In this document: positions 785 to 63,216 of the stretch, piece by piece | Numbering within the stretch: position 1 is the stretch's first letter | Layout of the letters: each line of letters opens with the position of its first letter | Sequence record: PP400785 | Length of the DNA: 64,000 nt | Reading direction: 5' to 3' (one strand) | Source of the DNA: Escherichia phage FL08 | Notes under the pieces: generated by a model | Databases searched by the model: none | The model's input: only the letters and a program-made list of their open reading frames with translations | What the model was told of the DNA's origin: nothing | Made by a program: the position numbers and the translations under genes

Positions 785-854
785 AATTTCCTCATTAATT
801 GAACATTGGAGCGATGCGTTTCAGAAGAGTATCAGCGCACCTTTAACGAATTAT

Positions 855-950
855 CCATTTTATTCTTCAAGTTGTTTTCTGTATCAGTAGTTGATATTGA
901 TATAGTACCATAATCAACTACTGATGTATATAGTTTTATGAAAAAATTTT
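855..950 (-). promoter_or_regulatory. early-promoter-like repeat cassette (possibly decayed)
   Basis: Shares tatagtaccat core and upstream leader-like sequence with other cassettes in window but lacks clear GTTTAC -35. Confidence 0.35.
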
Positions 951-955
951 AAACT

Positions 956-10033: not shown

Positions 10034-10041
10034 TATTTATA
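10034..10041 (-). promoter_or_regulatory. late promoter (TATAAATA) for soc
   Basis: Minus-strand TATAAATA about 30 nt upstream of soc ATG; matches T4 gp55-dependent late promoter consensus. Confidence 0.6.
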
Positions 10042-10071
10042 ATAAATTCTCGCGGCTTTTAAGACGAGCTG

Positions 10072-10590
10072 TTAATAACCTCGGTCTTGACGAGCGAAAT
10101 TTTCAGCATTTTTCAGATAATAAAGTTTAAAGATTTCTTCTGCTGTAAGACCAAGACCTTGAAACATGTTCAGAACAAAATGGAGAATATCAATCATTTC
10201 GAATTTGATTTCTAACTGGTCCTGTGGAGACAAATCAGTAATCAGAGTTTCACGACGTTCACCATGCTGAGCTTTCCACGGCTTCCATACAGCAGATGCA
10301 TCTTTTTCGCCATTGCTCATACCACCAAGAGAAGTCAGAAGTTCGCGGAATTCATCATCAATATAATCTTTCTGATTACGCAGCCAATCAACAACTTCAC
10401 CTGCAGTAGCCAAATCATCAGGATGACGGTTATATTCAGGTTTATCTTTAGCTAAACGAACTTGCAGAGATTTCTGCATATCAAGCATTACCTGCAGCGG
10501 GTCTTTTTCATCACCGAGAATATCCCAATATTCATTTTGAGCTTTATCAGCGCCTTCGATCAGTTGACTACATTCGTTGAAATGTGGCAT
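10072..10590 (-). CDS. 56: dCTPase / dCTP pyrophosphatase (gp56, MazG-like)
   Basis: 172 aa; position between soc and 61; all-alpha MazG-like composition; T4 gp56 about 171 aa. Confidence 0.8.
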   Translation of the reverse strand: MPHFNECSQLIEGADKAQNEYWDILGDEKDPLQVMLDMQKSLQVRLAKDKPEYNRHPDDLATAGEVVDWLRNQKDYIDDEFRELLTSLGGMSNGEKDASAVWKPWKAQHGERRETLITDLSPQDQLEIKFEMIDILHFVLNMFQGLGLTAEEIFKLYYLKNAENFARQDRGY

Positions 10591-12541: not shown

Positions 12542-12706
12542 TTACTCTTCTTTTTCTTTAGATTCCTCTTTTTTCTTTTTAGGAATCTGTTCAGGACCTT
12601 TATTTACTACAGCGCCTGACGTTGTTCCAGTAGAGATATTTTCAGGATTACCACCTGAATCTCCAGCTACCATATCTTCTTTGATAAATTCTTTATATGT
12701 TTTCAT
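12542..12706 (-). CDS. small protein (54 aa) with capsid-targeting-sequence-like N-terminus
   Basis: Sub-threshold ORF exactly filling the 61-upstream gap; SD AGAGG; N-terminus MKTYKEFIKE resembles T4 CTS MKTYQEFIAE; Lys/Glu-rich tail. Confidence 0.4.
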   Translation of the reverse strand: MKTYKEFIKEDMVAGDSGGNPENISTGTTSGAVVNKGPEQIPKKKKEESKEKEE

Positions 12707-15730: not shown

Positions 15731-16886
15731 TTAACTGCTCGAGGTCAGTTTCTAAATCAGATGCTGATTTACTTTTACTTTCTGGAGATTTAAATTTTTC
15801 AACCTTTGAGTTAATCAATTCATCAACTTCAGCTTCAACAATTTCATTGCTATCAATAGCACCTAACTGATAAGCACGTTTAATAGCATCTCGGAATGGT
15901 TGATGCTTAAATAAAGGACCCCAGAATGTAGTGCAGTTGGTATCTTTTGCACGCCAAGATTTTTCTTCGCGAATCATCTCACCGGTTTCTTCATCAAGAA
16001 ATTCACGGGCATACCAGCCATTTTTAGGTTTTACCACGAATCCTAATTCTAGAGCCATATCTAACAATCCAGAATAAGGATCGATACCACCGTCAAATTT
16101 AACATCAATAAAGAATTTACTTTTTTCTTTAACGGTACGAGATTTTTCTACATTTAGAACAAATTGATACCCCTGAAGATCAGAACCATCTTTAATCTGG
16201 CGTTTACCGATAATGAATACGGTATCAGCCGAATACATTACGCCTGTACCACCTGTCATCACGGTTTTACTAAACATTTCAATTGTTTCAATTGTATGGT
16301 TAACCGCAACACATGGAATATTTTTAATGCTAAAATAAGGAGTAACAATACGGAATAATGACTTCAGTGATTTAGCACGAGTCATATCTGCCACAGATTT
16401 TTCATTCAAGGCATCTTCCGTTTCTTTCTTAGAAGCCATATTACCGATTGAGTCGATGAATACAATAACCTTTTCACCACGCTCAATAGCTTCAAGCTGA
16501 TTCACCATGTCAATTTTCAGTTGTTCAACTGACTGGATTGGTGTATGAATTACTCGTTCCGGGTCAACTCCCATGGATCGCAAATAAGCTGGAGTAATAC
16601 CAAATTCGCTATCATAGAATAGACAAACCGCGTCAGGATATTTGTTCAAATATGCCGCAACCATAGTCAAAGACATATTTGATTTAAAGTGTTTAGAAGG
16701 CCCTGCGAAAATAGTTAAACCAGACTGCATGCCGCCATCAATCGCACCAGAAATAGCAATATTAAGCATTGGGATTTTTGTACGGATTACATCCTTTTCA
16801 TTAAAGAATTTAGATGTAGTCAGTTCAGCAGTCATTTTAGAAGTGGAAGCTTTAATCAAACGGGATTTTAAATCTGCAATAGACAT
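15705..16886 (-). CDS. uvsX: UvsX recombinase (RecA/Rad51 family)
   Basis: 393 aa; Walker A GPSKHFKS; long stretches recognisable as T4 UvsX. Confidence 0.9.
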   Translation of the reverse strand: MSIADLKSRLIKASTSKMTAELTTSKFFNEKDVIRTKIPMLNIAISGAIDGGMQSGLTIFAGPSKHFKSNMSLTMVAAYLNKYPDAVCLFYDSEFGITPAYLRSMGVDPERVIHTPIQSVEQLKIDMVNQLEAIERGEKVIVFIDSIGNMASKKETEDALNEKSVADMTRAKSLKSLFRIVTPYFSIKNIPCVAVNHTIETIEMFSKTVMTGGTGVMYSADTVFIIGKRQIKDGSDLQGYQFVLNVEKSRTVKEKSKFFIDVKFDGGIDPYSGLLDMALELGFVVKPKNGWYAREFLDEETGEMIREEKSWRAKDTNCTTFWGPLFKHQPFRDAIKRAYQLGAIDSNEIVEAEVDELINSKVEKFKSPESKSKSASDLETDLEQLSDMEEFNE

Positions 16887-16963
16887 TCATTTTTTCCATA
16901 GGCATCATTATATTTTCCTCACTGGTTAAAGATAGAGTAATTATAACACAATAAATTTAGGCA

Positions 16964-17812
16964 TTAATCAACTGCTATCGGATGAATAGCATTAAACTTA
17001 TGAAATGCTTCTGATTTTTCTTTACGCGAAACACACATGCGAAGAACCTTTAATGGCTCGTCTTCTTCACCCAACGATTTTCGTTTTTCAATATTAGAAG
17101 TTTTCCAACGAGCTTGTTCTGGAAACTCTCTATTGATTTGCTCAAGCGCTCTATTATGTTTAGAATTACTACGAATTGAACTGCACCCGCCAGGAGCTTG
17201 TGCTTTTCCAGATACAACCAGATATTTGAACAAGGCCAAATGCGGATAACCTTGATTAATTAAATTGAGAAATGCATACATATCTTCGCATAAATCAATT
17301 TTTCCATACCCAATTTGTTCTGTCGTAAGTTTTCCGAGGTCATACCATGTATTCGTGAATCCATATGAATTTTCACGATAATTACCCCAAGATGAAGTAA
17401 TTTTAAAAATAGGTAGACGAGCATGACCATGATAATACCCGCAATCCATGGCATCCTCAACATATTGAATCAATTCATAGAACTGTTCACGAGTCAATTG
17501 ATTGACTTTATCTACACAACGACGATCATCTCTTTTTCGCATTGAACTCATACGAATAGTAGTATCATCGTCAATCATCCAGATTCGTTGACCTGCATAC
17601 ATATCAGTAATTGCTTTACGAGTACCGGCAATTCCATTTACATCATCAGGAATAGTTATAATTTTAGCTCTAGACCCATAGGCATCATAATAAGCTTTTT
17701 CTTCGTGTTCACGTACTACAATATGTGGTTCATAATCAGTCGGAAACATATCAAGGGCAGAAACTGCCCCTACACGTTGATAGCTTGGAATTACGAATTG
17801 AATCATTTCCAC
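16964..17812 (-). CDS. glycosyltransferase with DxD motif at the bgt locus (possible T2/T6-type beta-glucosyl-HMC-alpha-glucosyltransferase)
   Basis: 282 aa; WMIDDDT DxD motif; lies between uvsX and 42 where T4 has 351-aa bgt, but does not resemble T4 Bgt. Confidence 0.5.
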   Translation of the reverse strand: MEMIQFVIPSYQRVGAVSALDMFPTDYEPHIVVREHEEKAYYDAYGSRAKIITIPDDVNGIAGTRKAITDMYAGQRIWMIDDDTTIRMSSMRKRDDRRCVDKVNQLTREQFYELIQYVEDAMDCGYYHGHARLPIFKITSSWGNYRENSYGFTNTWYDLGKLTTEQIGYGKIDLCEDMYAFLNLINQGYPHLALFKYLVVSGKAQAPGGCSSIRSNSKHNRALEQINREFPEQARWKTSNIEKRKSLGEEDEPLKVLRMCVSRKEKSEAFHKFNAIHPIAVD

Positions 17813-18543
17813 TCACCGTTATAATCTTTTTTCACAATATGAGTTTCGCCAGTATTCCACCAATGATCAACCAAGTAAAAATGACGAGAATATACATGAA
17901 GACTTCCAACATTCCATATAATAGAACCTGCTTTATACTGACGAGTTGAATCGCCTGCATTCAAATCAGATACTAATTTATCTAATACGTATTTTTGCCA
18001 TGCATAATCATTACGGAATCCGAAGACCACGTCATTTGAGCGCATGCTTACTACTGCATTGACTTTCTTATCACGAATCAGGTACTGTACTGTATTCGTA
18101 CACATGAAATCTGACATACCATCTTTATTGTAGTCAAATTGCATGGATGGACGAGTATAAATCATGATACCACGTCGAGAATCAGGATTTTGACCAAGTT
18201 CAGCTAAACACATATCATACTGGGCATAGTTATCTTCTGACCAGATAGCCCAGCCATAATTCGAGTTAATTTCACCTTTAGAAGATGCTACTTGTTGCCA
18301 AATCTTCGGTGTTTCACCCGGAATATCTTTAACAAACAGACTTTGAGACTTGTACCATTCAAGTTCACGCTGAATGTATTCATCATTAAGAGCGCCAAAA
18401 ATAAACGGTTCATCTGCTACAAATGATGCGCCAATAATTTCAATAGTTTTAACGCCAGTTTTATCAACTACGAAATCTTTTTCTTTTAATGCAAGCCCCA
18501 AATGAAGACGGATTTCTTCAACTGTCATAGAGTCACTAATCAT
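17803..18543 (-). CDS. 42: dCMP hydroxymethylase (gp42)
   Basis: 246 aa (T4 gp42 size); thymidylate-synthase-like sequence. Confidence 0.9.
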   Translation of the reverse strand: MISDSMTVEEIRLHLGLALKEKDFVVDKTGVKTIEIIGASFVADEPFIFGALNDEYIQRELEWYKSQSLFVKDIPGETPKIWQQVASSKGEINSNYGWAIWSEDNYAQYDMCLAELGQNPDSRRGIMIYTRPSMQFDYNKDGMSDFMCTNTVQYLIRDKKVNAVVSMRSNDVVFGFRNDYAWQKYVLDKLVSDLNAGDSTRQYKAGSIIWNVGSLHVYSRHFYLVDHWWNTGETHIVKKDYNGEWK

Positions 18544-18696
18544 TTAAACCTCAATTGATACATTCATATTTAACTTGTAACAGTAATAAACCCCACCCTA
18601 TGATAAGAGTTGGAATCATAGCAGGAACTGTTACGCTATAGTATATACTTATTATAACCATCAAGATTAAAAGCAACACTGTTATAATTTTGCTTT

Positions 18697-18948
18697 TCAT
18701 TCCTTCTCTCTGATGATAATTACCTGATTTGGTTGTGCAGACTTTTTAGTTTCACCCGCAATTGACCAAATAAATGTAATAAACCAACCAATAATTGACC
18801 AGTTAAACAGTAAAGACGTGAAAAAGATTCCTACTGTAGATTTTGACCCACGCATCAAGGCGATAAACCATGGAAGCATGTATATAATAATAGCCAACAC
18901 ACCTGAAACTAAAACCATAAAAATTGAACCTGCTACTAAAGTTTCCAT
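18697..18948 (-). CDS. imm: superinfection immunity protein Imm
   Basis: 83-aa two-TM membrane protein between 42 and 43; T4 Imm is 83 aa. Confidence 0.75.
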   Translation of the reverse strand: METLVAGSIFMVLVSGVLAIIIYMLPWFIALMRGSKSTVGIFFTSLLFNWSIIGWFITFIWSIAGETKKSAQPNQVIIIREKE

Positions 18949-18955
18949 GTTTTCC

Positions 18956-19336
18956 TCACTTAGTCAAATTTTTTACACATGAATTATAAGAATTCACTAC
19001 ATACTCCATCGGAGCATTTTTACCAGTACGCCATTGGTAATTATTAGCCCAATTAGCCCAAATTTCGGCGCAGTAGTTTTCAATTTTTTCTTCGCGTGTA
19101 ATTACATCTGAATTACGATATGCTTGAGCAGATTCATCTGGACGAATAGCTTCGTCAAAATTCGCCTGCATTTGTTCTACTGTTTGCTTTGGAGCTTCTT
19201 TATAACACTTGACATTAGGATTATAAAATTTGCTTGAACAGTTTACAATTTTTCCTGCATCAGACTGATTTACTACCGGTCCTTGAGCTACACAACCAGT
19301 AAGACCTAATGCAATAACCAAAATAGCGATTTTCAT
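18956..19336 (-). CDS. putative lipoprotein (imm.1 position)
   Basis: Signal peptide with lipobox LTGC at N-terminus. Confidence 0.5.
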   Translation of the reverse strand: MKIAILVIALGLTGCVAQGPVVNQSDAGKIVNCSSKFYNPNVKCYKEAPKQTVEQMQANFDEAIRPDESAQAYRNSDVITREEKIENYCAEIWANWANNYQWRTGKNAPMEYVVNSYNSCVKNLTK

Positions 19337-19346
19337 AATAATTTCC

Positions 19347-19583
19347 TCAAATGCAAGTAGTAATTACTCCAGTAGTGCTTATGCAGGTATTACCCATTTG
19401 CACACCTAAAGATCCATTTGTATTCACATGAAGATTATCATCAATTTTAACTGATATTTTACCATTAGTGTGAATAACGGTGCTAGATTCAATCACAGGT
19501 TGAGTATCATTTTCAACACTAACAAATGGAACTGCTGCTAATGCAACTAAACAAACTGCTAAGCATCCCATAACAATTTTCAT
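19347..19583 (-). CDS. small secreted protein (78 aa)
   Basis: Start moved to ATG (MKIVMG) preceded by GGAG; signal peptide; track start is a TTG inside the promoter leader. Confidence 0.45.
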   Translation of the reverse strand: MKIVMGCLAVCLVALAAVPFVSVENDTQPVIESSTVIHTNGKISVKIDDNLHVNTNGSLGVQMGNTCISTTGVITTCI

Positions 19584-19609
19584 TTTATTCTCCAAATCCG
19601 TATTAGTTG

Positions 19610-19670
19610 ATAGTTGTATAGTACCATGGAAGAACAGTCTTGTAAACAGTTTTGTGAAAATTTTTTTAGG
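19610..19670 (-). promoter_or_regulatory. early promoter cassette (GTTTAC -35, TACTATAC -10, A/T-rich UP element)
   Basis: Minus strand aaaattttcacaaaactGTTTAC-18nt-TACTATAC; -10 and leader repeated near-identically at 47770..47830, 62488..62550. Confidence 0.6.
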
Positions 19671-19735
19671 GAATTCTAAAGGTCCAGAATCATCTGTTTT
19701 TCATAAGTATAGATTTATATTACTTGTATGAAAAA

Positions 19736-19751
19736 GGGACCCGGAGGTCCC
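19736..19751 (-). terminator. intrinsic terminator hairpin downstream of gene 43
   Basis: gggacc-cgga-ggtccc hairpin followed by U-run on minus transcript. Confidence 0.6.
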
Positions 19752-19764
19752 TAGATTTATTCTA

Positions 19765-22461
19765 TCAGCCAAACAGGAAGTCTAACGAAGCTTTTTCTTC
19801 ATAGTCCATACCAGCCGATTCACACATGCCTGCAAGCGGTTTAACAAACGATTTTTGGAACAAAGTTGAGTAGTCAATCCAAGACAGTACGTCAGAACGA
19901 ATTTCTTTTGGAAGTTCTGTACCCGACGGCCAAGCAATGCACTTGTCACCAAATGGATTTCCTTCACGCAATGGAAGAACCATTACTTTATTTCCATCCA
20001 AAATTGGAGCTACACCTAAACCGCTAACAGCTCGACGATAAGTTAGCACACCACGAATATGGAACGGACATTTAAATCCTGGCCAACCTTTATCATCATA
20101 TTTCGCTATATCGTTCGCAGTTTTTACTTCAGCAATAACTTTATAGTCAAGTTGACGATATTCTTTCTCGAAGTTCTTGTAATATTCTTGGACAGACTCT
20201 TCACCTTCCTGAAGAATACGACGAATACTTTCTTCGAGAGCTTCTTGGACCGCTTTAGGCGTTGAACTCTGCTGAGTTTCCATACCCATGATTTTTAGAT
20301 GTGGTTCAGCAAAACGCTTATCTTCCATATCATAAACGTTCAGAGCATAACGCTTTTTCGCTTTCCAAAATCCACCAACGCCCTTTGAACCAAGTGGAGG
20401 GCAAGAAATAGCTTCACGGTCCATATGCATCAGATGCTCGCGGTTATTCATATAATCACATAACTCACGATATGCAACATCAATCATAGGTTCCATCTTT
20501 TTCTTACCGAACTGATTCATGAATTCAACTAAATCGTTCTGCTCTTTGAATCGGTCAAGACCAACTTTTTCAATAACTTTATCTACACAAACATATACCG
20601 AATCAGTATCACCTGCTGCAATGAAATCTTCGCCATTAGTTCCGCATACTTTATTCAGATATTCATTAATTTTACGAGCAATCCACTGAATACCGACTTG
20701 GCCAAAAATTGTGATAGCAGTAGCATTTCGCAAATCATAGTAACGGAAATGAATATTACCAAGAGCACCATAAAGACTGTTAATGAGAATTTTACGGTTC
20801 AGCTGATTTGTATTAGCAAGTGTAGCCGCTTTTTCACATTCTTCAATCAGACTATTGAGAACAGATTCGGTGTAATTCGACAGTTCATTTAAAAAATCAT
20901 CAGTGAACTTAACATATCGTTCAACTTCTGGTTTAGTTGAACAAGACCCTGCGCCTTTCATAATAATCTTTTTAATAGCTTCGGCATTCATTTCTTCAGC
21001 GAACATTTTCTTTTTCCAGTCTTTACGCTGGAAAAATACTTTAGCGATTTCCTTTGGAATGATACCTTCTTGATGCTTATCATACATCCATCCATTCGGA
21101 GAACAAGAATATTCTTCACTTGGCTTAGGAGCTGTTCCTGCGATATATTCATGAATTGGATGAACTTTAAATTGTCCACGAATAGTCTCAGGACTAATGT
21201 TAACCTGACGAATAATGCTCGGATACAGAGACGTCAAGTCAAAACTCATAATATATCGACGAGCAATTGGTTTAGGTTCAAACACAAATGCACCCGGAAA
21301 ACTCTGTTTAACGTGCGAACCTTGTTGAGGAATAACCTTATGTTCACCTTTCAATGAGTTAAAAATAATAGCATCCCAGGTTTTAATAGGACTCATTACA
21401 CCAGAAAAAGGCATTTTAGCGTAATAAGACATACTTAAAACTAGATCGATAAACCCGCGAATTTTATCAATTGCTTGAACTGATTCTACGTCAATGATGT
21501 TATAACTAATGTATCGTTGATGATTAGTCTCACGAAGTTTATTAATAGGACCATCATACGGTAATTTACCTTTTTTGGTTTCATGTTGAGCAACTGATTC
21601 CAAAGAGAATGACGGCAAATTAGTAAAAGCGAATTTCTTGTACAAATCTAAATAATCAAGAATAGATACGCCATCAATAGAATAAATTTCTTTGCTACCG
21701 TACATATTTTGAATTAGTTTAGATTTTACTCGACCGATTGGAGAGAAGCGTTTCATACTACGTTCACCGAGAACCATTTTAACACGATTCATGATATACG
21801 GAACGTCAAATCCCTCAATATTCCAACCGGTAAAAATAGCAGGTCGTTTCTGTTCCCAGAGATTAATATATTCCATGAGCATATCACGCTCATTATCAAA
21901 TGACATATAAATTACTCGGTCAAGAATTTCTTGAGGAACTTCATCACCACCTTCACAGTCAAGCTTAGCAGCTAACTTTGCATCCCATTTTGATACTGAA
22001 CCGTACATTGAATTCAACAAATCAAAGACGTAAAAACGATCGTCAATTGAATCATAATGAGTGATAGCATCAATTTCATATTCAGCTTTCATTGGGTCAG
22101 GAAATTTATCACCAGTAACCTCAATGTCACAGTTAGCTACACGAACAAATTTTCGGTCATAAACAATTTCTGAACCATACGTATCACTGATATAAGCGAG
22201 TTTAAAATCGTTCATACCAAGAGCTTCGAGACCGATGTCTTCCATTCGCTTCATCCAATCTCGAGCATCTTTCATTGATTGAAATTTTTGAGGAGCGCAA
22301 TTTTTACCATAAATGTCTTTGTACTTTGACTCTTCCTTACAATGCCTAAACATAGTTGGAAGATATTCTACTTCACGAGTACGTTCCTTTCCGTTTTCAT
22401 CAATATAACGTTCAACAATGTTATTTCCGACTGTTTCGATAGAGATATAAAATTCTTTCAT
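19765..22461 (-). CDS. 43: DNA polymerase (gp43, family B)
   Basis: 898 aa (T4 gp43 size); exonuclease and polymerase motifs incl. DTDS; sequence recognisable as T4 gp43. Confidence 0.95.
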   Translation of the reverse strand: MKEFYISIETVGNNIVERYIDENGKERTREVEYLPTMFRHCKEESKYKDIYGKNCAPQKFQSMKDARDWMKRMEDIGLEALGMNDFKLAYISDTYGSEIVYDRKFVRVANCDIEVTGDKFPDPMKAEYEIDAITHYDSIDDRFYVFDLLNSMYGSVSKWDAKLAAKLDCEGGDEVPQEILDRVIYMSFDNERDMLMEYINLWEQKRPAIFTGWNIEGFDVPYIMNRVKMVLGERSMKRFSPIGRVKSKLIQNMYGSKEIYSIDGVSILDYLDLYKKFAFTNLPSFSLESVAQHETKKGKLPYDGPINKLRETNHQRYISYNIIDVESVQAIDKIRGFIDLVLSMSYYAKMPFSGVMSPIKTWDAIIFNSLKGEHKVIPQQGSHVKQSFPGAFVFEPKPIARRYIMSFDLTSLYPSIIRQVNISPETIRGQFKVHPIHEYIAGTAPKPSEEYSCSPNGWMYDKHQEGIIPKEIAKVFFQRKDWKKKMFAEEMNAEAIKKIIMKGAGSCSTKPEVERYVKFTDDFLNELSNYTESVLNSLIEECEKAATLANTNQLNRKILINSLYGALGNIHFRYYDLRNATAITIFGQVGIQWIARKINEYLNKVCGTNGEDFIAAGDTDSVYVCVDKVIEKVGLDRFKEQNDLVEFMNQFGKKKMEPMIDVAYRELCDYMNNREHLMHMDREAISCPPLGSKGVGGFWKAKKRYALNVYDMEDKRFAEPHLKIMGMETQQSSTPKAVQEALEESIRRILQEGEESVQEYYKNFEKEYRQLDYKVIAEVKTANDIAKYDDKGWPGFKCPFHIRGVLTYRRAVSGLGVAPILDGNKVMVLPLREGNPFGDKCIAWPSGTELPKEIRSDVLSWIDYSTLFQKSFVKPLAGMCESAGMDYEEKASLDFLFG

Positions 22462-30730: not shown

Positions 30731-31933
30731 TTATTTTGTAATAATGTCAAACTGTTCTTTAAAGCAGAAGCTTGAATCTTGATGTTGATACAAAAATTCA
30801 TACGCTTTTTCTCGCTCACGGTCATAAAGAGCTCGGTCAGATGACAGTTCTTTAATACGTTCAAATGTTGATTCCATATCATTTTCATCAAACCAAATGA
30901 TACCACTATCATGCGAGGTCAAAGGAGTATTATCAACACGGAATTTTAAATTTTCGCCAGTAGATTTCCAAAATACCGGAATTGTTCCACATGCACCAAG
31001 CTCGAGGTGAGTATATTCTAAAGAACGTTGTAGATATTTTTTATCCAACTTACTCAACTGATAACCAAATCCGGATTTACTCATGCGTTCAAGCATTTCG
31101 CTATTTACATAACGGTCGAGAATTTGCGTCGGCAAATTAGGAGCAATTTTAATTTGGTCTACTTGATGAAGACGATAATACTCGTATGGAATTCCTTTTT
31201 CTTTAATAGGAATGAACGCTGGAGAACGTTCCAGACCTTCCATAATAGTACTTAGTCCTGCAGGTTTAAGATGTTTTTCGTGAAAATCAAACATCTGATA
31301 AAAACCTTTCCATGTAGTCGTACGACCAATCCAACGGTTGATATTCATGTTAATTTCAGAAACATCTTTCCAGTAGGTTGATCGAACCTTCGCAATATCC
31401 ATAGGAGGCTGAAAGTTGTATACGGTCGGTGCTTCTTCAATATCATCAAACAGAGAAACTGTTTCTGGATACCATTCTTTCATCAGAACTTTATTAAAAT
31501 CGCCATTATCAGAATGACTAAAAATAACATCAGCTCGACGAACAGTTTCTTCTAATCCCAAATTTCGACGCAAAGAAAGAGAAGAATGGTCATGCTGATA
31601 AACTACAACACGAACCGAAGGTTTAATGTTATCAATAATTTTTTTATAGTTATTAATAGTGTCTTCTTCAACTGAAGTAGCAGGAACTGAATTGATAATT
31701 AGAATATCACAATCATTTACCAGCTTAAGTGTTTTATCGTATTCTTTTGCCAATAAAACCGGAATTGAAAATGATTTATAATCATGTGCACAGTTACGAG
31801 TAAATGATTTATCTTTAGCATAAACCAAAGTTACTTCATGACCATTTTTAATAAACCAATCACGCTGCTCAAGAGAAAATTTAGTTACACCACAACCTTC
31901 AAGACCTCGAGCCATAAAAATACATACTTTCAT
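30731..31933 (-). CDS. agt: DNA alpha-glucosyltransferase
   Basis: 400 aa; N-terminus ICIFMARGLEGCGVTKFSLEQRDWFIKNGHEVTLVYAKDKSF recognisable as T4 a-gt. Confidence 0.9.
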   Translation of the reverse strand: MKVCIFMARGLEGCGVTKFSLEQRDWFIKNGHEVTLVYAKDKSFTRNCAHDYKSFSIPVLLAKEYDKTLKLVNDCDILIINSVPATSVEEDTINNYKKIIDNIKPSVRVVVYQHDHSSLSLRRNLGLEETVRRADVIFSHSDNGDFNKVLMKEWYPETVSLFDDIEEAPTVYNFQPPMDIAKVRSTYWKDVSEINMNINRWIGRTTTWKGFYQMFDFHEKHLKPAGLSTIMEGLERSPAFIPIKEKGIPYEYYRLHQVDQIKIAPNLPTQILDRYVNSEMLERMSKSGFGYQLSKLDKKYLQRSLEYTHLELGACGTIPVFWKSTGENLKFRVDNTPLTSHDSGIIWFDENDMESTFERIKELSSDRALYDREREKAYEFLYQHQDSSFCFKEQFDIITK

Positions 31934-31983
31934 TTAATATCCTCTTTGTTTTGGTTTATTTTACCAAAAATTTATAAAGCAAT

Positions 31984-35971: not shown

Positions 35972-36442
35972 TTAATCATGTTTCCACACCCAATCGGTAT
36001 TTGACCAAAGTCGCTGATTATTTGATCCTCGCCACAGCTTTTTAGTCGGAAGATTTTTCTCATACTTCCCATCAATAATAACATCAACATATTTAAGCAT
36101 TTCTAGTTGTTTAATATCTTCAAACTTATATCCTGTCCACAACCAAATGCTTTTATTGGGATAAAGATTTTTTACTGTTTGAACAATGCAATGAATAACA
36201 TCTCGGTTATCAGGATAGAGAGGGTCTCCTCCAGTTATAGTTAATCCTTCTATATAATCATTATTCAAACATTCAATTAATTGTTCTAGTGTTTCGCCAG
36301 TGAATGGAATACCATTTCTAGCATTCCATGTTGATTTATTATAACACCCTTCACATTTATGCAAACAACCTGTAACGAAAAGAACGACCCTGCAACCAGG
36401 GCCATTCACAAAATCGCAAGGATAAAATCTATCATAATTCAT
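35972..36442 (-). CDS. nrdG: anaerobic ribonucleotide reductase activase NrdG (radical SAM)
   Basis: 156 aa; CLHKCEGC CxxxCxxC radical-SAM cluster motif. Confidence 0.85.
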   Translation of the reverse strand: MNYDRFYPCDFVNGPGCRVVLFVTGCLHKCEGCYNKSTWNARNGIPFTGETLEQLIECLNNDYIEGLTITGGDPLYPDNRDVIHCIVQTVKNLYPNKSIWLWTGYKFEDIKQLEMLKYVDVIIDGKYEKNLPTKKLWRGSNNQRLWSNTDWVWKHD

Positions 36443-38256
36443 TGGTGCTTAACCCTATGCATGATTTCTTTATTTTTACCGAGATTAAATCCGCGTTCGT
36501 TCGGATTTCCCAAATAACCACATGTTCTTCTTATTGTATTCATCTTTTTAGGATCAGTTTCTCCACAAATAGAACAAACAAATCCGTTTTCGGTAGGAGT
36601 CATTTCATGGGTACTTCCACATGTAAAACATTTATCTACTGGCATATTAACACCAAAATAATCTAAATGTTGCGCAGCATAATCCCATACAGCCTCAAGA
36701 CCCTTTAGGTTATTTTTCATATCAGGAAGTTCAACATAAGAAATGTGACCACCTGTCGCAATGAAATGATATGGCGCTTCACGAGAAATCTTTTCAAACG
36801 GAGTAATATTTTCTTCTACTGAAACATGGAAACTATTAGTGTACCAGCCTTTATCGGTAACATCTTTTACACTTCCATATTTTTCTGTATCAAGTTTACA
36901 GAAGCGGTAACAAAGGTTTTCAGCAGGAGTCGAATATAAACTAAAAGCAAATCCGGTTCTTTCAGTCCACTGTTTAAGATGAGCATTCATTTTAGTTAAA
37001 ATTTCTTGTCCAATATCACGACCGACAAGAATATTCAATTCGTGAATACCAATGTATCCTAAAGACACTGAACTTCTACCGTTTTTAAATAACTCAATTA
37101 TATCGTCATCGGGTTTAAGACGAACCCCGAATGCACCTTCTTGGTAAAGAATAGGAGCAACAGTAGCTTTAACTCCTTTTAAGGAACTAATTCTACACAT
37201 CAAAGCTTCAAAACACAAATCCATTCGCTCATTGAATAATTCAGTAAATTTCTGTTCATTGAATTGTGTTCCAATATAAGAATCTAACGCAATACGAGGA
37301 AGATTCAGTGTTACAACACCAAGATTATTACGTCCATCAAGAATTTCATTACCAGTCGAATCTTTCCATACGCTCAAGAAACTACGGCAACCCATTGGAG
37401 AAATAGGAACAGATGAACCAGTGATAGCTTTATTGTTCTTAGCTGAAATAATATCAGGATACATCCTTTTGCTTGCACACTCTAAAGCAAGCTGCTTAAT
37501 ATCATAGTTCGGATCGTCTTTATAAAGATTAACACCTTCTTCAACGAACATAACAAGTTTAGGGAAAATAGGAGTTATCCCGTCACGACCAAGACCTTTA
37601 ATACGATTTTTCAGAATTGCTTTCTGAATCATTCGTTCAGTCCAGTCAGTTCCCGTACCAAATGTAATTGTTACAAAAGGCGTTTGTCCGTTTGAACTAA
37701 AGAGAGTATTTACTTCATATTCATAAGCTTGGAATGCATCGTATACGTCTTTTTCTGTTTTAGATTGAGCATAATTCAACGCATCAGCGATTTGCCATTT
37801 TTCTGCATCCTCAATATGTTTTGCATAGGTGCGTTTAACATAAGGAGAAAGTACTTTATCTACATTCGCAAAAGTTGTTCCGCCATATTGATGGGAAGCA
37901 ACTTGCGCAGTAATTTGTGCCATAATTGCAGTAGCAACACCGATTGATTTAGGAGTTTCAATCTGTGCATTACCGAGCTTAAATCCGTTCTCAAGCATTC
38001 CTTTTAAATCTACTAAACAGCAATTAGTAAAAGGCAATGATATACTGTAATCTAAATCGTGAAAATGAATTAATCCGACATTATGAGCATTTACAATATG
38101 GCTCGGAAGAATACTACAAGCGATATGTTTAGAAACAATACCGGCCATTAAATCTCTTTTTGTTGGAAAGACACGAGAATCTTTGTTGGCATTTTCGGTA
38201 TTTAATTCTTTATCTTTATTTGAAATAAAATTTAAAACATCTTTCTCTAAAGACAT
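36439..38256 (-). CDS. nrdD: anaerobic ribonucleotide reductase NrdD (glycyl radical enzyme), uninterrupted
   Basis: 605 aa continuous ORF; C-terminal glycyl radical motif RRTCGYLG; C-terminal Cys4 zinc ribbon. Confidence 0.9.
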   Translation of the reverse strand: MSLEKDVLNFISNKDKELNTENANKDSRVFPTKRDLMAGIVSKHIACSILPSHIVNAHNVGLIHFHDLDYSISLPFTNCCLVDLKGMLENGFKLGNAQIETPKSIGVATAIMAQITAQVASHQYGGTTFANVDKVLSPYVKRTYAKHIEDAEKWQIADALNYAQSKTEKDVYDAFQAYEYEVNTLFSSNGQTPFVTITFGTGTDWTERMIQKAILKNRIKGLGRDGITPIFPKLVMFVEEGVNLYKDDPNYDIKQLALECASKRMYPDIISAKNNKAITGSSVPISPMGCRSFLSVWKDSTGNEILDGRNNLGVVTLNLPRIALDSYIGTQFNEQKFTELFNERMDLCFEALMCRISSLKGVKATVAPILYQEGAFGVRLKPDDDIIELFKNGRSSVSLGYIGIHELNILVGRDIGQEILTKMNAHLKQWTERTGFAFSLYSTPAENLCYRFCKLDTEKYGSVKDVTDKGWYTNSFHVSVEENITPFEKISREAPYHFIATGGHISYVELPDMKNNLKGLEAVWDYAAQHLDYFGVNMPVDKCFTCGSTHEMTPTENGFVCSICGETDPKKMNTIRRTCGYLGNPNERGFNLGKNKEIMHRVKHQ

Positions 38257-41713: not shown

Positions 41714-42666
41714 TTCAATACCTCAATAGCATTACGTAAACCATTTGCTTTTGCATTAAGAGCTTTTAACAATTTGGTGTGTTCTGCAATTTGGGCTTCA
41801 ACTTCAATCAAACGAGCATTGAGATATTCACGTTCTTCGCTCAAGTTATCAACTTTTTCTACTTTAGGTTCTTTTACAACTGGCTTATACGTATTAGGGT
41901 TCTTCAGTTTAATTAGAATGCGTGAACTGTATAACATTGAACCATTATCTTCGGTTTCATCATACATTTCTACTACGTCCATGATTTTTAACATCATGCG
42001 AAGTTTATAAGACAACGAACGAATAGTTTTGTTGTGCTTATTAATTTCTTTAGCTGTCATGGTGCCGAGATTACGTGAGTAATAATAAGGAACCTGGATA
42101 TTAATTAATACTGATGAACCACCTGGCTTGTGTGTTACTTCATCAGCAATAACCCAGTCCTTAACATGAACTGTATTTGTACGGTCATCGCCTGCGGTAA
42201 ATAGTTTACGAGCATGCTTAAAAAGCATATTCACTTGGTCATTGAATTGACAAGCGAATTTATCAGCAAATTTAGTTTCAGGAATGGTAGATAACCAATC
42301 AGCCAAATGGGTCTTTTTAACATCGTTAACAATAGTAAATTCAACCAAATCGGTTATAGATGTCGCAGATTTAATGAAGCTCGGCTTCATAAAGTTTTTA
42401 ATGTTCTCATGAGCTACAGTAGAAGATAACATACGAGAACGTTTAAACCATTCAAGCAAATTGCCTAACGAATGAGAATAAGCGTTTTGAGTATCTTTAC
42501 AGATATGATTTTCCTGGCCAACATATTGAAGGAAATCACGAAGAATATTATTAATTACTGCTCTGTGTCCGATCTGATAATTGCGGTGTTTAGTAATAAG
42601 ACTGTCAAAATAATCAATATAATGTTTACGAGTCATATTAATCTCCTCAGTAGAAAGTAAGAACAT
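41710..42666 (-). CDS. hypothetical protein with C-terminal coiled coil (318 aa)
   Basis: Large ORF; last ~45 aa heptad-rich ([44 protein letters not shown]). Confidence 0.5.
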   Translation of the reverse strand: MFLLSTEEINMTRKHYIDYFDSLITKHRNYQIGHRAVINNILRDFLQYVGQENHICKDTQNAYSHSLGNLLEWFKRSRMLSSTVAHENIKNFMKPSFIKSATSITDLVEFTIVNDVKKTHLADWLSTIPETKFADKFACQFNDQVNMLFKHARKLFTAGDDRTNTVHVKDWVIADEVTHKPGGSSVLINIQVPYYYSRNLGTMTAKEINKHNKTIRSLSYKLRMMLKIMDVVEMYDETEDNGSMLYSSRILIKLKNPNTYKPVVKEPKVEKVDNLSEEREYLNARLIEVEAQIAEHTKLLKALNAKANGLRNAIEVLK

Positions 42667-42693
42667 TATACCACATCCTTGTGGCGAAGTAAA

Positions 42694-43713
42694 CTAGTTT
42701 AGTGCATTTAGTGCATTGTTCAGTTTAGAACGTTGCTTCGTGAGATTTTTGACTTTTTCTTGAGCTTTTTCTAGCATCTTTTCAGCTTCTAACACTTCAT
42801 TAGTTGCTTTAACGAGTTCATCATCTACTGCCTTAAGGGACTTCTCAATCGCATCCGCGTGCCATTTTTCAACAGGTTTAAGACTCGGATTTTCAACAGG
42901 AAGAAAATTCGCTTTATTGAATTTCCATGCATCCTTATTACCTGAACTATACATCCAATATTTAGGATCGTTTGATGAGTAATTGGATAAATTTAAGATA
43001 TCTTGCACTTCCTGCTTTTTCTCTTGCGGGATTTCGTCCTTTCTCAAAAAATCGTATTTAAATGAAACGATCATATCAAGTTCATATGTTGTTGTGTCTA
43101 ATTTAAATCGCTCAAAACGAGGTAAAATCTTAGACTGAACAGCGGCAACAACATCCATATACTTAAATGCTTCTGCCAACTGCGATTTAAGGCATTCGCA
43201 AATTGAAAGAGAATTTTTTGTATTAGGTTTAAAGCTAATTCGTGCAGTTCTATTATTTTCTTTAAATGGTCTTACTTCCATCTGAAGAGTATAACCATCA
43301 AATTTCAGATTCTTTAAGTTAATATCAGAGCCCTTTAATCGACTAGCAGTAGACAAAATTTGCTTTAATTGTTTACGAAATAGAGCAATAAATCTCCATT
43401 CAATACGATAATGATTTGGATTAAAAAATCCTGTTGATAAATCAACCTTACTCTGACCAACGCCTTGAACAAATAGAGGATTTTTATAATCAATAGTTTT
43501 ACAGAAATCGGTGAGCTGCTCACGAGCAGTCATTTGTGTAATATATCCCGCTTTACTAAAATGACGTAACCATTCACTGCTATTCATATACTTAAAGTGA
43601 ATGGAACTATTAACTCTATCAGGGTCTAAATTATTTTGGCACAAAAATGTCATAACATTACGGGTATAGCTGGCATTACGAACCATATCTTCAATTTGAG
43701 AACGAGTTTTCAT
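42694..43713 (-). CDS. hypothetical protein with C-terminal coiled coil (339 aa)
   Basis: Large ORF; coiled-coil tail (DELVKATNEVLEAEKMLEKAQEKVKNLTKQRSKLNNALNALN). Confidence 0.5.
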   Translation of the reverse strand: MKTRSQIEDMVRNASYTRNVMTFLCQNNLDPDRVNSSIHFKYMNSSEWLRHFSKAGYITQMTAREQLTDFCKTIDYKNPLFVQGVGQSKVDLSTGFFNPNHYRIEWRFIALFRKQLKQILSTASRLKGSDINLKNLKFDGYTLQMEVRPFKENNRTARISFKPNTKNSLSICECLKSQLAEAFKYMDVVAAVQSKILPRFERFKLDTTTYELDMIVSFKYDFLRKDEIPQEKKQEVQDILNLSNYSSNDPKYWMYSSGNKDAWKFNKANFLPVENPSLKPVEKWHADAIEKSLKAVDDELVKATNEVLEAEKMLEKAQEKVKNLTKQRSKLNNALNALN

Positions 43714-45611: not shown

Positions 45612-45617
45612 TTTCTG

Positions 45618-45675
45618 TTCCTCCGTAGTTGATAGTTGTATAGTACCACAGAGGAACGGTCTTGTAAACAACTAA
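45618..45675 (-). promoter_or_regulatory. early promoter cassette
   Basis: tagttgatagttgtatagtaccac ... cttgtaaaca core shared with other cassettes. Confidence 0.5.
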
Positions 45676-45986
45676 AAGAAACTTCTTTCACAATTTTTTC
45701 CACTGAACCACGCGCTCACTGCTTTCTTAGTCTCAGGAGCAGTGTTATCCATAAACCATTCAAAGGCAGCCTTTTTATGATTCTGGAGGGCTTCTCGGGC
45801 TTTAATCTGCTCACGGTCTATTAACACTAACATATGAGCCTTTCTTGTCACCATGGGCTTCTTATGATTTTTTGAATACTCCCAGTCATTTGTCCATCGC
45901 ATTGTCGTTGCGAATTGAAATACAGCTTCTTTAATTTTAGTTTCGTAAATTTCACGAGCCTTTGAGTATAACATCATTACCTCCAT
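45672..45986 (-). CDS. hypothetical protein (104 aa)
   Basis: ORF in operon. Confidence 0.4.
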   Translation of the reverse strand: MEVMMLYSKAREIYETKIKEAVFQFATTMRWTNDWEYSKNHKKPMVTRKAHMLVLIDREQIKAREALQNHKKAAFEWFMDNTAPETKKAVSAWFSGKNCERSFF

Positions 45987-46057: not shown

Positions 46058-46777
46058 TTAGGATTCTTCTAAATGTCTTTTCTGAAAAGTTGATACCATA
46101 CTACGATACGGTTCATTTGGATATCCGTGTTTTATAGCTTCCTTTGTAAATTTTCTCCATCCATATTTAGTTTCTTTCCAAAGCTCGAATAATTCATCTT
46201 CATACTGCCATATAGTTAAATGAGAACGCTTTGCAGCTTTAATTCCATTAATATGCTTTTCTTTTACTGCAGGATTGCTTAGTTTCTTTTTAATAATATT
46301 ACTAACTTTTCTAACAAAAACTGGGTCCTTATATCGTTGCGAAGTTTTTATTGAAGTGTTTAATTTAGCTTCCGGCGTGGATGTAACCTCTTTCATCTTT
46401 TTCTTCATATGCTGTATATGATTAGGATTTTTCCATAAATTTATAGAATGCTTTTTGCATTTTATCCTAGTTTCATCTGCAACCTTTCCTCCTTCACCCC
46501 CGTATGACAGGTTAACACAGTTTTTTCCATATTTCAATTTACCTGCCATGATATATAATATTTCAGCTTGTACCATTTTATCATAATTATCAAAAACTTC
46601 TAAAACCGTTTTTGATAATATGTGGTCATTTGACACTTTTACACGTTCTATATAATTTCCACTACCAACATACGAATCATTGATGTTATTAGTTATATGT
46701 CGACCATAATAGTATTTCTTAATACCTGTCTTTAAATTTAATATTTCAGTTTTATAGATAGTAAAATATTTTTTCAT
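46058..46777 (-). CDS. GIY-YIG homing endonuclease (Seg-like)
   Basis: N-terminal IYKTEILNLKTGIKKYYYGRH GIY-YIG motif; basic C-terminal DNA-binding region. Confidence 0.65.
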   Translation of the reverse strand: MKKYFTIYKTEILNLKTGIKKYYYGRHITNNINDSYVGSGNYIERVKVSNDHILSKTVLEVFDNYDKMVQAEILYIMAGKLKYGKNCVNLSYGGEGGKVADETRIKCKKHSINLWKNPNHIQHMKKKMKEVTSTPEAKLNTSIKTSQRYKDPVFVRKVSNIIKKKLSNPAVKEKHINGIKAAKRSHLTIWQYEDELFELWKETKYGWRKFTKEAIKHGYPNEPYRSMVSTFQKRHLEES

Positions 46778-47742
46778 TTTAATAATACCGTTTCAGCAAT
46801 TTCTTCCCAACCGTTTTTGTCGGTCATAATAAAGTCAGCAAGATAAAGAGCAGTACGCAGTGAAACATTGCGTAAACGATTAACATTAACTTTCATCCAT
46901 GATAATGCTTTATAAGTTTCTTCATCAGAAAGACCGCGCTTTTGCATCATGTCAGTTGAAAGAATAACATCTTCAACCCTGACCATAATTTCTTCATTAG
47001 TGTGAACACCCAAATCCAAATAAACCGAGCGGGACACTAATGCTTGTAAATGTGGAGCAAGTTTAGTACCACGGTCTAATTCGCGGTCAATGTCAACGTT
47101 TGTGATAAAAACAATCGTTCCTTTAAATTCAAACTCACGCTCAATGCCTTTTTCTTCTAAGTAAGAAGATGCAGTGCTCCAGCAGACTTTACGGGTCTCT
47201 CCAGTGTCCAGAGCGGCTTTTAGAAGATTAAGAATGTCCATATCAGAGAAAACATCCACATCATCAATCAAAAGGACAGAATTCTCTTCACGATTATTCC
47301 AAAGCTGCTCATAAAGACCAATACCAGAGATTTTACCATTAATGCTTTTATATTCAATGTATCCAATATCATTTGCTTTATTTAAAGCTTTATCTAAAGA
47401 ATACGTTTTACCAATACCTGCTGCTCCCGAGATAATTAATGAACGAATGTTTCCGTTAATAATACCATTCGTCATCATTCCCATAACATTAAATCTTTTA
47501 TTAATGCGGGTTTTCATATCTTCATACGATTCTTTAACTTCTTCAACTTTTACACCATCATATGAAATGTCTGATTTGTAAACCCAAACACCGCGACGCT
47601 TACCGTCAATTTCAACAAAAACTTTACCATCTCCTTGTGCATCTACCGGAGCATTATCAGGAAACCACTCACCTAAGAGTTCAAAAGTTCCAGAGATTTC
47701 TTTACCAAAGTAGATACCCTTATTGATAGTTACAGTTTTCAT
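46774..47742 (-). CDS. P-loop NTPase (about 323 aa)
   Basis: Walker A GAAGIGKT; Walker B-like LLIDDVD; start trimmed to MKTVTI ATG after GGAG. Confidence 0.55.
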   Translation of the reverse strand: MKTVTINKGIYFGKEISGTFELLGEWFPDNAPVDAQGDGKVFVEIDGKRRGVWVYKSDISYDGVKVEEVKESYEDMKTRINKRFNVMGMMTNGIINGNIRSLIISGAAGIGKTYSLDKALNKANDIGYIEYKSINGKISGIGLYEQLWNNREENSVLLIDDVDVFSDMDILNLLKAALDTGETRKVCWSTASSYLEEKGIEREFEFKGTIVFITNVDIDRELDRGTKLAPHLQALVSRSVYLDLGVHTNEEIMVRVEDVILSTDMMQKRGLSDEETYKALSWMKVNVNRLRNVSLRTALYLADFIMTDKNGWEEIAETVLLK

Positions 47743-47769
47743 TTTATTCTCCAAATCCGTATCAGTTGA

Positions 47770-47830
47770 TAGTTGTATAGTACCATAAAGCTTTATGCTT
47801 GTAAACAGTTTTGTGAAAAATTTTTGAAAT
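47770..47830 (-). promoter_or_regulatory. early promoter cassette
   Basis: GTTTAC -35 and TACTATAC -10; leader and RBS identical over ~50 nt to cassette at 19584..19630. Confidence 0.6.
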
Positions 47831-47835
47831 AAAAA

Positions 47836-47853
47836 GGGAGCCCGAAGGCTCCC
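47836..47853 (-). terminator. UUCG-tetraloop terminator hairpin
   Basis: gggagcc-cgaa-ggctccc followed by U-run on minus transcript. Confidence 0.55.
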
Positions 47854-47855
47854 TA

Positions 47856-51170: not shown

Positions 51171-51187
51171 GATGTTCTCCTCTTTAT

Positions 51188-51232
51188 CCGATAGTTGTAT
51201 AGTACCACAGCTCAAACGGAAAGTAAACCGGT
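51188..51232 (-). promoter_or_regulatory. early promoter cassette
   Basis: gatagttgtatagtaccacag ... gtaaacc core. Confidence 0.5.
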
Positions 51233-51244
51233 AAAATGAAAAAA

Positions 51245-51260
51245 GTCTCCCGAAGGAGAC
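51245..51260 (-). terminator. UUCG-tetraloop terminator hairpin
   Basis: gtctcc-cgaa-ggagac followed by UUUUUU on minus transcript. Confidence 0.55.
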
Positions 51261-51265
51261 TAATG

Positions 51266-62450: not shown

Positions 62451-62487
62451 TTCATTCTCCAAGTTGTTTTCTGTATCAGTAGTTGAT

Positions 62488-62550
62488 AGTTGTATAGTAC
62501 CATGGAAGGGTAAGGATGTAAACTGTTTTGTGAAAAAATTTTTAAAAAGT
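62488..62550 (-). promoter_or_regulatory. early promoter cassette
   Basis: aaaaattttttcacaaaacaGTTTACatcc-18nt-TACTATAC on minus strand. Confidence 0.6.
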
Positions 62551-62649: not shown

Positions 62650-62660
62650 AGATACCAAAA

Positions 62661-62684: not shown

Positions 62685-62691
62685 AAGAATG

Positions 62692-63209: not shown

Positions 63210-63216
63210 CTAAAAA

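Follow-up and report, generated by a model that had tools for sequence, protein, structure and literature searches.

The window, by which we mean the whole stretch of 64,000 nucleotides of Escherichia phage FL08 (PP400785) analysed here, belongs to a Tequatrovirus and is colinear with T4 (NC_000866) from 5.7 to 71.6 kb, local blastn resolving the two into 21 blocks of 75-99% identity. Its GC content is 31-38%, its GC skew is negative throughout, and its early and middle genes occupy the minus strand. The flagged segment (19584-19670) lies between gene 43, encoding the DNA polymerase (19765-22461), and the imm.1/imm/42 cluster; over the surrounding 3 kb (window bases 18500-21500), Escherichia phage teqhal is 99.9% identical and hundreds of further Tequatrovirus genomes are 95-99% identical. 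The segment holds a promoter and leader that serve a small variable gene, ORF78, and it recurs elsewhere in the window in front of quite different genes (table 1).

A family of six promoter/leader copies

A preliminary description, made from the letters alone, had reported about 50 nt of identity upstream of the genes starting at 19583 and 47742. This was borne out when the two focal copies were compared in register and ungapped: 50 of 51 positions are identical across 19577-19627, from the TGG of the extended -10 to the seventh base of the ORF, in codon 3, as are 27 of 28 across 19639-19666, a stretch comprising the A/T tract of the UP element, GTTTAC, and AAG. The spacer core, on the other hand, is identical at only 4 of 11 positions, confirming that each GTTTAC is followed by a different spacer; the 18 nt ascribed to that spacer hold when counted after GTTTAC, and taking TTTACA as the -35 hexamer gives the canonical 17 nt. 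Over the whole flagged interval, 73 of 87 positions agree. A 45-nt pattern, GGTACTATACAACTATCAACTRATACGGATTTGGAGAATAAAATG, running from GGTACTATAC to the ATG, has exactly two matches in the window, 19581-19625 and 47740-47784, both on the minus strand, and none in 100 shuffles. Four further copies carry TACTATACAACTATC, one of them decayed, and the repeat finder placed all six in a single family. When the six are aligned together with the T4 imm.1 copy, the columns without variation are TTTAC, TGGTACTATA, TATC, the G and A of the Shine-Dalgarno (SD) sequence, and the ATG. Each of the six copies is followed by a gene of a different PHROG family. The repetition is real and far beyond chance.

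Table 1. Positions of the six copies, their component elements, and the genes they serve (window coordinates)
Feature	Position	Strand	Remarks
Copy 1, terminator hairpin	19735..19752	-	After gene 43; AGGGACCTCCGGGTCCCT, then T run; 7 pairs, 5 GC
Copy 1, UP-element-like A/T-rich tract	19648..19672	-	ctaaaaaaattttcacaaaact; within the block 27/28 identical to copy 2 (19639-19666)
Copy 1, core early promoter	19618..19647	-	GTTTAC -35 (TTTACA and 17-nt spacer), TGg extended -10, TACTAT -10
Copy 1, start-site region and 5' leader	19584..19617	-	acaactatcaactaatacggatttGGAGAATAAA; transcription start probably near 19611
Copy 1, SD and perfect RegB/S1 consensus site	19583-19593	-	GGAGAATAAAA
ORF78, variable gene served by copy 1	19347..19583	-	Small protein, hydrophobic N-terminus, PHROG 4189
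Copy 2, terminator hairpin	47835..47854	-	After nrdC.11; AGGGAGCCTTCGGGCTCCCT, then T run
Copy 2 (nrdC.10 promoter)	47743..47831	-	UP tract, GTTTAC 47801-47806, TACTAT 47777-47782, type A leader
Copy 2, SD and RegB consensus site	47742-47752	-	GGAGAATAAAA
nrdC.10 homologue, served by copy 2	46774..47742	-	322 aa, P-loop NTPase-like, PHROG 1250
Copy 3 (nrdC.8 promoter)	45612..45690	-	GTTTAC 45664-45669, TACTAT 45640-45645, short leader CAACTACGGAGGAACAGAAA
Copy 4 (mobD.5 promoter)	51171..51261	-	Terminator 51244-51261, GTTTAC 51223-51228, TACTATACAACTATC 51190-51204
Copy 5 (e.8 promoter)	62451..62544	-	UP tract, GTTTAC 62518-62523, TACTAT 62494-62499, type B leader CAACTACTGATACAGAAAACAACTTGGAGAATGAA
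Copy 6, decayed, between motB and cef	832..952	-	UP tract, TGgTACTAT (902-907), type B leader

The related copies had been described as having the same -10 and leader as the focal pair. The -10 box is indeed the same, but a substantial part of the leader recurs only in the e.8 copy, which has CAACTACTGATAC and GGAGAATGAAATG in common with the focal leaders and a different, longer middle; in the nrdC.8 copy the likeness stops at CAACTAC, and in the mobD.5 copy, which has a leader and SD of its own (GAGGAGAACATC), it stops at ACAACTATC. The spacer of copy 2 is the palindromic aagcATAAAGCTTTATgg. The decayed copy, placed earlier at about 855..950, is also real, 849-911 being 92% identical to 62441-62503. 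Its -35 has mutated to ATATAC (926-931; TATACA in a shifted reading), its SD is GAAG, its ATG lies at 858, and the ORF behind it (832-858) has only eight codons and should be annotated as a gene remnant. Some records carry about 540 nt of additional sequence close to the e.8 site. The start codons proposed for the five intact copies stand: the true starts for annotation are the SD-preceded ATGs at 19583, 47742, 45611, 51170, and 62450. The mechanical ORFs have their first in-frame start 12, 117, 60, 45, and 12 nt upstream of these, respectively, the two 12-nt over-extensions beginning at a TTG that overlaps the SD. The claim that such ORFs are over-extended into the promoter is therefore correct as to the over-extension (12-117 nt), which mostly reaches the leader and SD, but the promoter proper is entered only for nrdC.10, nrdC.8, and mobD.5.

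Early promoter signals, leaders, and the RegB site

Among the promoter patterns scanned, only the T4-specific GTTTAC-N18-TAnnnT was significant: the window has 20 matches (expected number 0.87), every one of them on the minus strand, and a genome-wide census of T4 counted 38 on the minus strand and none on the plus strand. A generic sigma-70 scan was uninformative (97 and 99 matches in the window against 83 and 87 expected). The narrower GTTTAC-N18-TACTATAC has five matches in the window, again all on the minus strand, with the -35 at 19647, 45669, 47806, 51228, and 62523. The TACTATACAACTATC subfamily makes up 5 of the 20 GTTTAC-N18-TAnnnT matches in the window and, as intact copies, 8 of the 38 in T4. 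Five copies fit TTTACA/T-17-TACTAT with a TG before the -10, and every intact copy has GGAG or GAGG 6-8 nt before its ATG. An A/T tract, aaaaattttcacaaaac, directly upstream of the -35 is kept in copies 1, 2, 5, and 6 and is weaker in those of nrdC.8 and mobD.5. T4 early promoters have been characterized as "uber" UP/-35/TGn/-10 promoters, with further conserved positions beyond the sigma-70 elements (Hinton 2010, PMC2988021). T4 has an orthologue of every copy in the corresponding place, namely at imm.1, nrdC.10, nrdC.8, mobD.5, e.8, and the motB-cef spacer (T4 positions 27080, 55384, 53943, 58780, 70696, and 6606), and the T4 promoters of motA, ndd.6, and frd.3 belong to the TACTATACAACTATC subfamily as well. 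From this orthology and the literature we infer that the copies are active promoters in the present phage. The records AF158101 and NC_000866 carry no promoter features annotated at the imm.1 site, and a literature search for genome-wide 5'-end mapping in T4 returned no paper.

Terminator-like hairpins stand upstream of four copies: copies 1, 2, and 4 (table 1), and copy 5, whose nearest one is at 62661-62684. From stem-loop to UP tract the distance is about 60 nt in copy 1 and about 115 nt in copy 5. The nrdC.8 copy lacks an upstream terminator and has in its place an 11-bp inverted repeat through which spacer and SD pair across the -10 (-14.5 kcal/mol, z = -4.0). The decayed copy has no stem-loop.

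The SD segment of the focal copies, GGAGAATAAAA, is identical to the published optimal site for RegB and S1 (PMC1702504). RegB targets intergenic GGAG motifs of early transcripts (PMC1702504) and works together with ribosomal protein S1 in cleavage (PMC1702504; Uzan & Miller 2010, PMC3014915); efficient cleavage requires GGAGAAUAAAA, with GGAGRAYARAA as the consensus (Durand 2006, PMC1702504). In the 64 kb this consensus matches only twice, precisely at the two focal SDs. The exact 11-mer occurs eight times in T4, always on the early strand, at eight early genes, some of them outside the subfamily. The non-focal copies deviate from the consensus at 1-3 positions, the variants including GGAGAATGAAA, which the window has at e.8 and T4 at imm.1, and GGAGGAACAGA, found at nrdC.8. 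Folded from about 7 nt after the -10 into the first codons, the leaders have predicted minimum free energies of -2.1 to -3.8 kcal/mol; that of copy 1 is predicted to be unstructured (z = +0.9), and in the focal leaders the RegB/SD site is predicted to be single-stranded. We infer, from identity to the published site, that the focal SDs function as RegB targets in this phage. Because the SD-to-ATG segment is an optimal RegB/S1 site, part of the leader identity can be explained functionally.

Putting these elements together with published T4 biology, the working of a copy may be outlined as follows. The upstream hairpin would end or attenuate incoming transcription, except in the nrdC.8 copy, whose hairpin straddles the -10. 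The UP tract, TTTACA, 17-nt spacer, TGn, and TACTAT would recruit host sigma-70 RNA polymerase, still unmodified, immediately upon infection. Transcription would probably start about 7 nt after the -10, inside CTATCAA, and yield an apparently unstructured leader, some 30 nt long, that ends with the GGAG SD and the ATG. Since the focal SD would be an optimal site for the phage nuclease RegB with S1, any gene behind such a cassette would be expressed in a strong but brief early pulse.

Gene content and probable block exchange at the cassettes

Compared across about 560 relatives, the gene content beside the cassettes differs between T4-like genomes at two junctions, 43|imm.1 and nrdC.11|nrdC.10. 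The former has three alleles: ORF78 stands between cassette and imm.1 in 325 records, as in the window; an unrelated ORF of 83 aa, ORF83, takes its place in 31 Tequatrovirus records, including T2, RB27, RB51, and Ptacy1496 (tblastn gives 38 matches to ORF83 in all); and T4 has neither, its cassette being joined directly to imm.1. The ORF78 and ORF83 alleles end at an identical junction, gaggaaattattATGaaaatc, and the breakpoint of the T2 allele falls within the -35 region. At nrdC.11|nrdC.10, before or inside copy 2, at least three different promoter-bounded inserts occur among the relatives. In fPS-90 and G3G6 the insert comprises two ORFs, one with DUF4031, its upstream breakpoint lying directly after TACTATACAA(c/t)TATCAA (TACTATACAACTATCAA), and a second early promoter precedes nrdC.10; in HY01 it is a 161-aa ADP-ribosylase-like ORF equipped with a promoter and terminator of its own, and in PhiZZ23 a 66-aa ORF with its own early promoter. 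The mobD.5 cassette shows no breakpoint and is stable across about 500 Tequatrovirus records. Farther afield, the ORF78 homologue of Dhakavirus dhabil has an e.2 homologue as its neighbour and is preceded by another early cassette, whose end is GGAGAATAAAATG; Dhakavirus records also contain diverged homologues of ORF83 (52-54% identity) at coordinates far from the ORF78 homologue. Salmonella phage STML-198, a Gelderlandvirus, has a -10 box and type A leader with 93.5% identity over 46 nt, in a segment that lacks the -35 and UP tract and stands after an ADP-ribosylase-like ORF similar in kind to the HY01 insert. Thus, the modules appear to cross genus borders, judging from the leader in Gelderlandvirus (about 93%) and from homologues of ORF78 and ORF83 at other loci in Dhakavirus. 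Overall, the comparison of relatives supports shuffling at the cassettes.

Alternatively, homing endonucleases, or random illegitimate recombination whose products survive in intergenic regions, might have produced the differences in gene content, the homology of the cassettes being irrelevant. The comparison of the window with T4 lends some substance to this explanation. Only 2 of 20 indel or replacement gaps end in the early-cassette zone (permutation P = 0.43, no enrichment), and several others correspond to homing-endonuclease genes present only in T4, namely segF, mobB, mobC, and the I-TevII intron; the cassettes were therefore not the dominant route by which window and T4 diverged. The two gaps in the cassette zone, the imm.1 site and a deletion of nrdC.4, both have 8-nt microhomologies just inside the ORFs, ATGAAAAT at imm.1 and ACTCGTAA at the nrdC.4/nrdC.3 junction, and the same 8-nt junctions would also be expected from short-homology illegitimate recombination. 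Nonetheless, as an account of the variation at the cassettes themselves it is unlikely: no endonuclease gene adjoins the inserts at 43|imm.1 or nrdC.11|nrdC.10, the inserts are bordered by early promoters of the same family, the breakpoints in fPS-90/G3G6 and in T2 lie inside cassette blocks, and whole spacer and leader blocks have been swapped between paralogous cassettes.

The evidence for such swaps comes from the distribution of blocks, which assort independently of one another, among orthologous and paralogous copies. In T4, the nrdC.10 and frd.3 promoters have the same UP tract, -35, spacer (18/18), and -10 box but different leaders; conversely, nrdC.10, imm.1, and ndd.6 have a type A leader in common and differ in their spacers. 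The 15-nt middle of that leader, AACTRATACGGATTT, is found only in the imm.1-site, nrdC.10, and ndd.6 copies, and the e.8 and decayed copies have a type B leader in common, even to ATGGA-AATT. The T2 allele at 43|imm.1 combines a spacer and leader of the nrdC.8 type with an upstream part of the imm.1-site type. Likewise, one IMG/VR genome carries at the ORF78 site a spacer that agrees with the e.8 spacer of the same genome rather than with its orthologue in the window; the underlying scan for the -10 box returned only 21 stretches, drawn from a few T4-like contigs, and serves for examples, not statistics. These patterns support an exchange of spacer and leader blocks between paralogous cassettes.

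Two causes would account for the likeness of the copies: selection maintaining the polymerase contacts and the RegB/SD segment, and copying from cassette to cassette by the phage's own homologous recombination. One might ask whether the first alone suffices, that is, whether selection toward one best promoter and RegB/SD sequence has made the copies similar while the cassettes were never copied and had no role in rearrangement. The invariant columns do coincide with known elements (UP tract, TTTAC, TGgTACTAT, GGAG, and ATG), the optimal RegB site also recurs at T4 early genes outside the subfamily, and indel ends relative to T4 are not enriched at cassettes. Yet copying should show up at positions whose sequence is left free by function, the spacer cores and the leader middle AACTRATACGGATTT, and it is in such apparently unconstrained positions that identity is found, including the 18/18 spacers of nrdC.10 and frd.3, whereas the spacers and leaders of other early promoters in the same genome are quite different. 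Because no sequence requirement is known for them and they vary widely elsewhere, identity in spacer core and leader middle points to common descent and not to convergence. Adding the blocks of paralogous cassettes held at orthologous sites and the differing ORFs at the same cassette junctions, we regard selection alone as an improbable explanation. That the leader is conserved as a structured or protein-bound regulatory RNA (riboswitch-like, an sRNA, or a translational operator such as that of RegA) can be dismissed as scarcely credible: although unrelated genes have some 30 nt of conserved transcribed sequence in common and T4 uses RNA operators for RegA, gp32, and gp43, the leaders fold more weakly than their shuffled controls (z +0.05 to +1.4), no Rfam match at gathering threshold lies near the cassettes, the sole match in the window being a tRNA (63559-63631), the RegB/S1 site and SD fully account for the conserved 3' part, and the 5' part is common to promoters whose leaders then diverge.

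We thus consider it very probable that the copies are T4-type immediate-early promoters of one subfamily which, with their leader and translation-initiation region, constitute the promoter-early stem-loop cassettes (PeSLs) of T4-type phages, and that they have been copied between cassettes and provide homology for the swapping of ORFs. The roughly 50-100 bp of shared sequence would act as portable homology, with small accessory ORFs gained, lost, or replaced at the junctions. The likeness to PeSL-type module-shuffling cassettes suggested in the preliminary description is accordingly supported, through the match in anatomy, the three alleles at 43|imm.1, the inserts at nrdC.11|nrdC.10, and the block mosaicism.

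Cassettes and known systems

Taken as elements, the cassettes are ordinary T4 early promoter/leader units already described as PeSLs, and current understanding is unchanged by them. What is added here is that the shared SD segment is an optimal RegB site and that 43|imm.1 and nrdC.11|nrdC.10 are well-populated, multi-allelic junctions. They provide a clean natural example of the proposed mechanism, cassette homology serving the swapping of small accessory genes in T4-type phages. Being multi-allelic across hundreds of Tequatroviruses, both are good sites in which to seek host-range, exclusion, and anti-defence genes; for engineering, cassette junctions would be natural insertion sites with strong, brief early expression. 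More tentatively, and with somewhat less than even confidence, we suggest that the type A cassette (TGgTACTATACAACTATCAACT..ATACGGATTTGGAGAATAAAATGAAAA) is a portable "pulse-expression" module, coupling an immediate-early promoter type that ranks among the strongest to the optimal RegB/S1 cleavage site, with 43|imm.1 and nrdC.11|nrdC.10 as landing pads for small accessory genes. If so, synthesis from a captured ORF would begin immediately and cease within minutes, and the genes on trial at the landing pads might serve superinfection exclusion or anti-defence. Such a module would extend the PeSL idea with a post-transcriptional component; it would not be a new kind of element.

PeSLs were defined in RB49 and phi1, for which reporter fusions and inverse PCR demonstrated activity as promoter and terminator as well as mini-circles, and in which crossovers fell between the -10 and the ATG (Arbiol 2010, PMC2839356). 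For T4 and PST the published element is made up of stem-loop, AT-rich region, TTTACW-N17-TAYWAT, SD, and ATG; the same paper describes PST PeSLs in a degraded state, at about 43-51 kb, and an ndd.4/ndd.5 exchange (Comeau, Arbiol & Krisch 2014, PMC4122927). The nrdC.10 region of PST maps at about 52 kb. The T4 ndd.5 and ndd.6 promoters found in our census adjoin the published ndd.4/ndd.5 exchange. At the level of sequence, the copies of the window have every feature of a PeSL given in those accounts: the composite of stem-loop, A/T tract, sigma-70-type promoter, SD, and ATG with about 100 bp conserved, the position beside small ORFs that differ between close relatives, and crossovers either between -10 and ATG or in the upstream tract. 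Relative to the PeSLs as there described, nothing essential is different, two of the six window copies having their terminator 60-115 nt off and one being without. Mini-circles, in these accounts, are shown only for the RB49/phi1 PeSLs. The passages of the two papers that describe the elements (PMC2839356, PMC4122927) make no mention of an SD overlapping an optimal RegB site.

As regards T4 early promoters (PMC2988021), the imm.1, nrdC.10, nrdC.8, mobD.5, and e.8 copies have the same elements in the same positions; that review treats promoters only, whereas the conservation in the window runs through the leader into the first codons and defines the TACTATACAACTATC subfamily. The focal SD segment resembles the known RegB/S1 targets (PMC1702504, PMC3014915) in having the same sequence, lying in an intergenic translation-initiation region, and being predicted single-stranded. 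The e.8 and nrdC.8 variants are off consensus; the T4 nrdC.8 translation-initiation region is only moderately cleaved by RegB in vivo, as determined by primer extension on RNA from infected cells (PMC1702504). Finally, lambdoid morons and integron cassettes likewise consist of an accessory ORF with or behind its own expression signals, inserted between intact genes. Morons, however, comprise a gene with its own promoter and terminator and, unlike the window cassettes, are not thought to move via homology of regulatory sequences; integrons employ a dedicated integrase and attC sites, whereas the window cassettes have neither an associated recombinase gene nor an attachment site. General homologous recombination between repeated promoters offers the best explanation of their exchange.

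Shared cassette segments and the nrdC region

A segment comprising the -10 box and the type A leader (the leader common to both focal copies) recurs across genera with 93.5% identity, in the Salmonella phage STML-198 (Gelderlandvirus; L034, 701-746), where it carries neither the -35 nor the UP tract and is preceded by an ADP-ribosylase-like ORF. An inserted ORF of the same kind occupies the nrdC.11/nrdC.10 junction of Escherichia phage HY01 (L008, 1010-1631), and the two cases hint that ORF and cassette were transferred together between genera. The nrdC.10 promoter of the window shares an identical 18-nt spacer with the T4 frd.3 promoter; a perfect 12-nt palindrome, ATAAAGCTTTAT, lies within this spacer (47783-47800). 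The interval between the nrdC.10 and nrdC.9 homologues spans about 730 nt in the window (46061-46795) but only about 40 nt in T4.

Gene content differing from T4

The nrdC.4 gene, about 1 kb in T4, is missing from the window (site 42617-42694); its early promoter and ATG are joined to the body of nrdC.3 via an 8-nt microhomology, ACTCGTAA, placed directly 3' of the start codon of the fusion. Three homing-endonuclease genes of T4 (segF, mobB and mobC) and the nrdD intron with I-TevII are also missing from FL08, and about 950 nt of different sequence replaces the T4 segA/beta-gt segment. Only one tRNA gene is present (Rfam RF00005, score 65.8 bits), and its location agrees with that of the tRNA cluster in T4.

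Features of the window
Feature	Position	Strand
tRNA gene	63559-63631	minus
157-aa ORF, PHROG 2280 (unknown function)	62692-63165	minus
31-nt motif at ORF starts	12676-12706, 58198-58228, 63135-63165	minus
Gaps: endonuclease genes and intron absent, segA/beta-gt replaced	10041-10072, 31924-31949, 36422-36442, 37718-37721, 16874-17821	
Early promoters with -10-bracketing inverted repeats	-35 at 1521, 2629, 13931, 45669, 50428, 55617, 61797, 62186	

Possible internal-protein-like ORFs

Three ORF starts have a 31-nt motif in common, encoding MKTYKEFIKE, MKTYQEFITE and MKSYTQFLNE, peptides which we take to resemble internal-protein targeting sequences. At the gap 57755-58197, some 440 nt stand in place of the 1.4-kb T4 denV-ipII-ipIII segment; this replacement is in keeping with the internal-protein locus being known as hypervariable. 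The 157-aa ORF lies between two copies of a terminator hairpin, which form 36-nt direct repeats (62652-62687 and 63207-63242, 94% identical); the corresponding place in T4 holds a single copy of the terminator and no ORF. The ORF begins with MKSYTQFLNE, presumably akin to the N-terminal sequence that directs internal proteins of T4 to the capsid, and looks like a module inserted via recombination between the duplicated terminators.

Inverted repeats around the -10 hexamer

Strong inverted repeats, with folding energies between -14 and -24 kcal/mol and z-scores between -4 and -7, bracket the -10 hexamer in 8 of the 20 early promoters of the window. In three of these (-35 at 2629, 45669 and 55617) the arm in the spacer is complementary to, and pairs with, the Shine-Dalgarno sequence, which would then be hidden in read-through transcripts and exposed in those started at the promoter. 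The arrangement matches that subclass of promoter-early stem-loop (PeSL) cassettes in which the stem-loop overlaps the -10.
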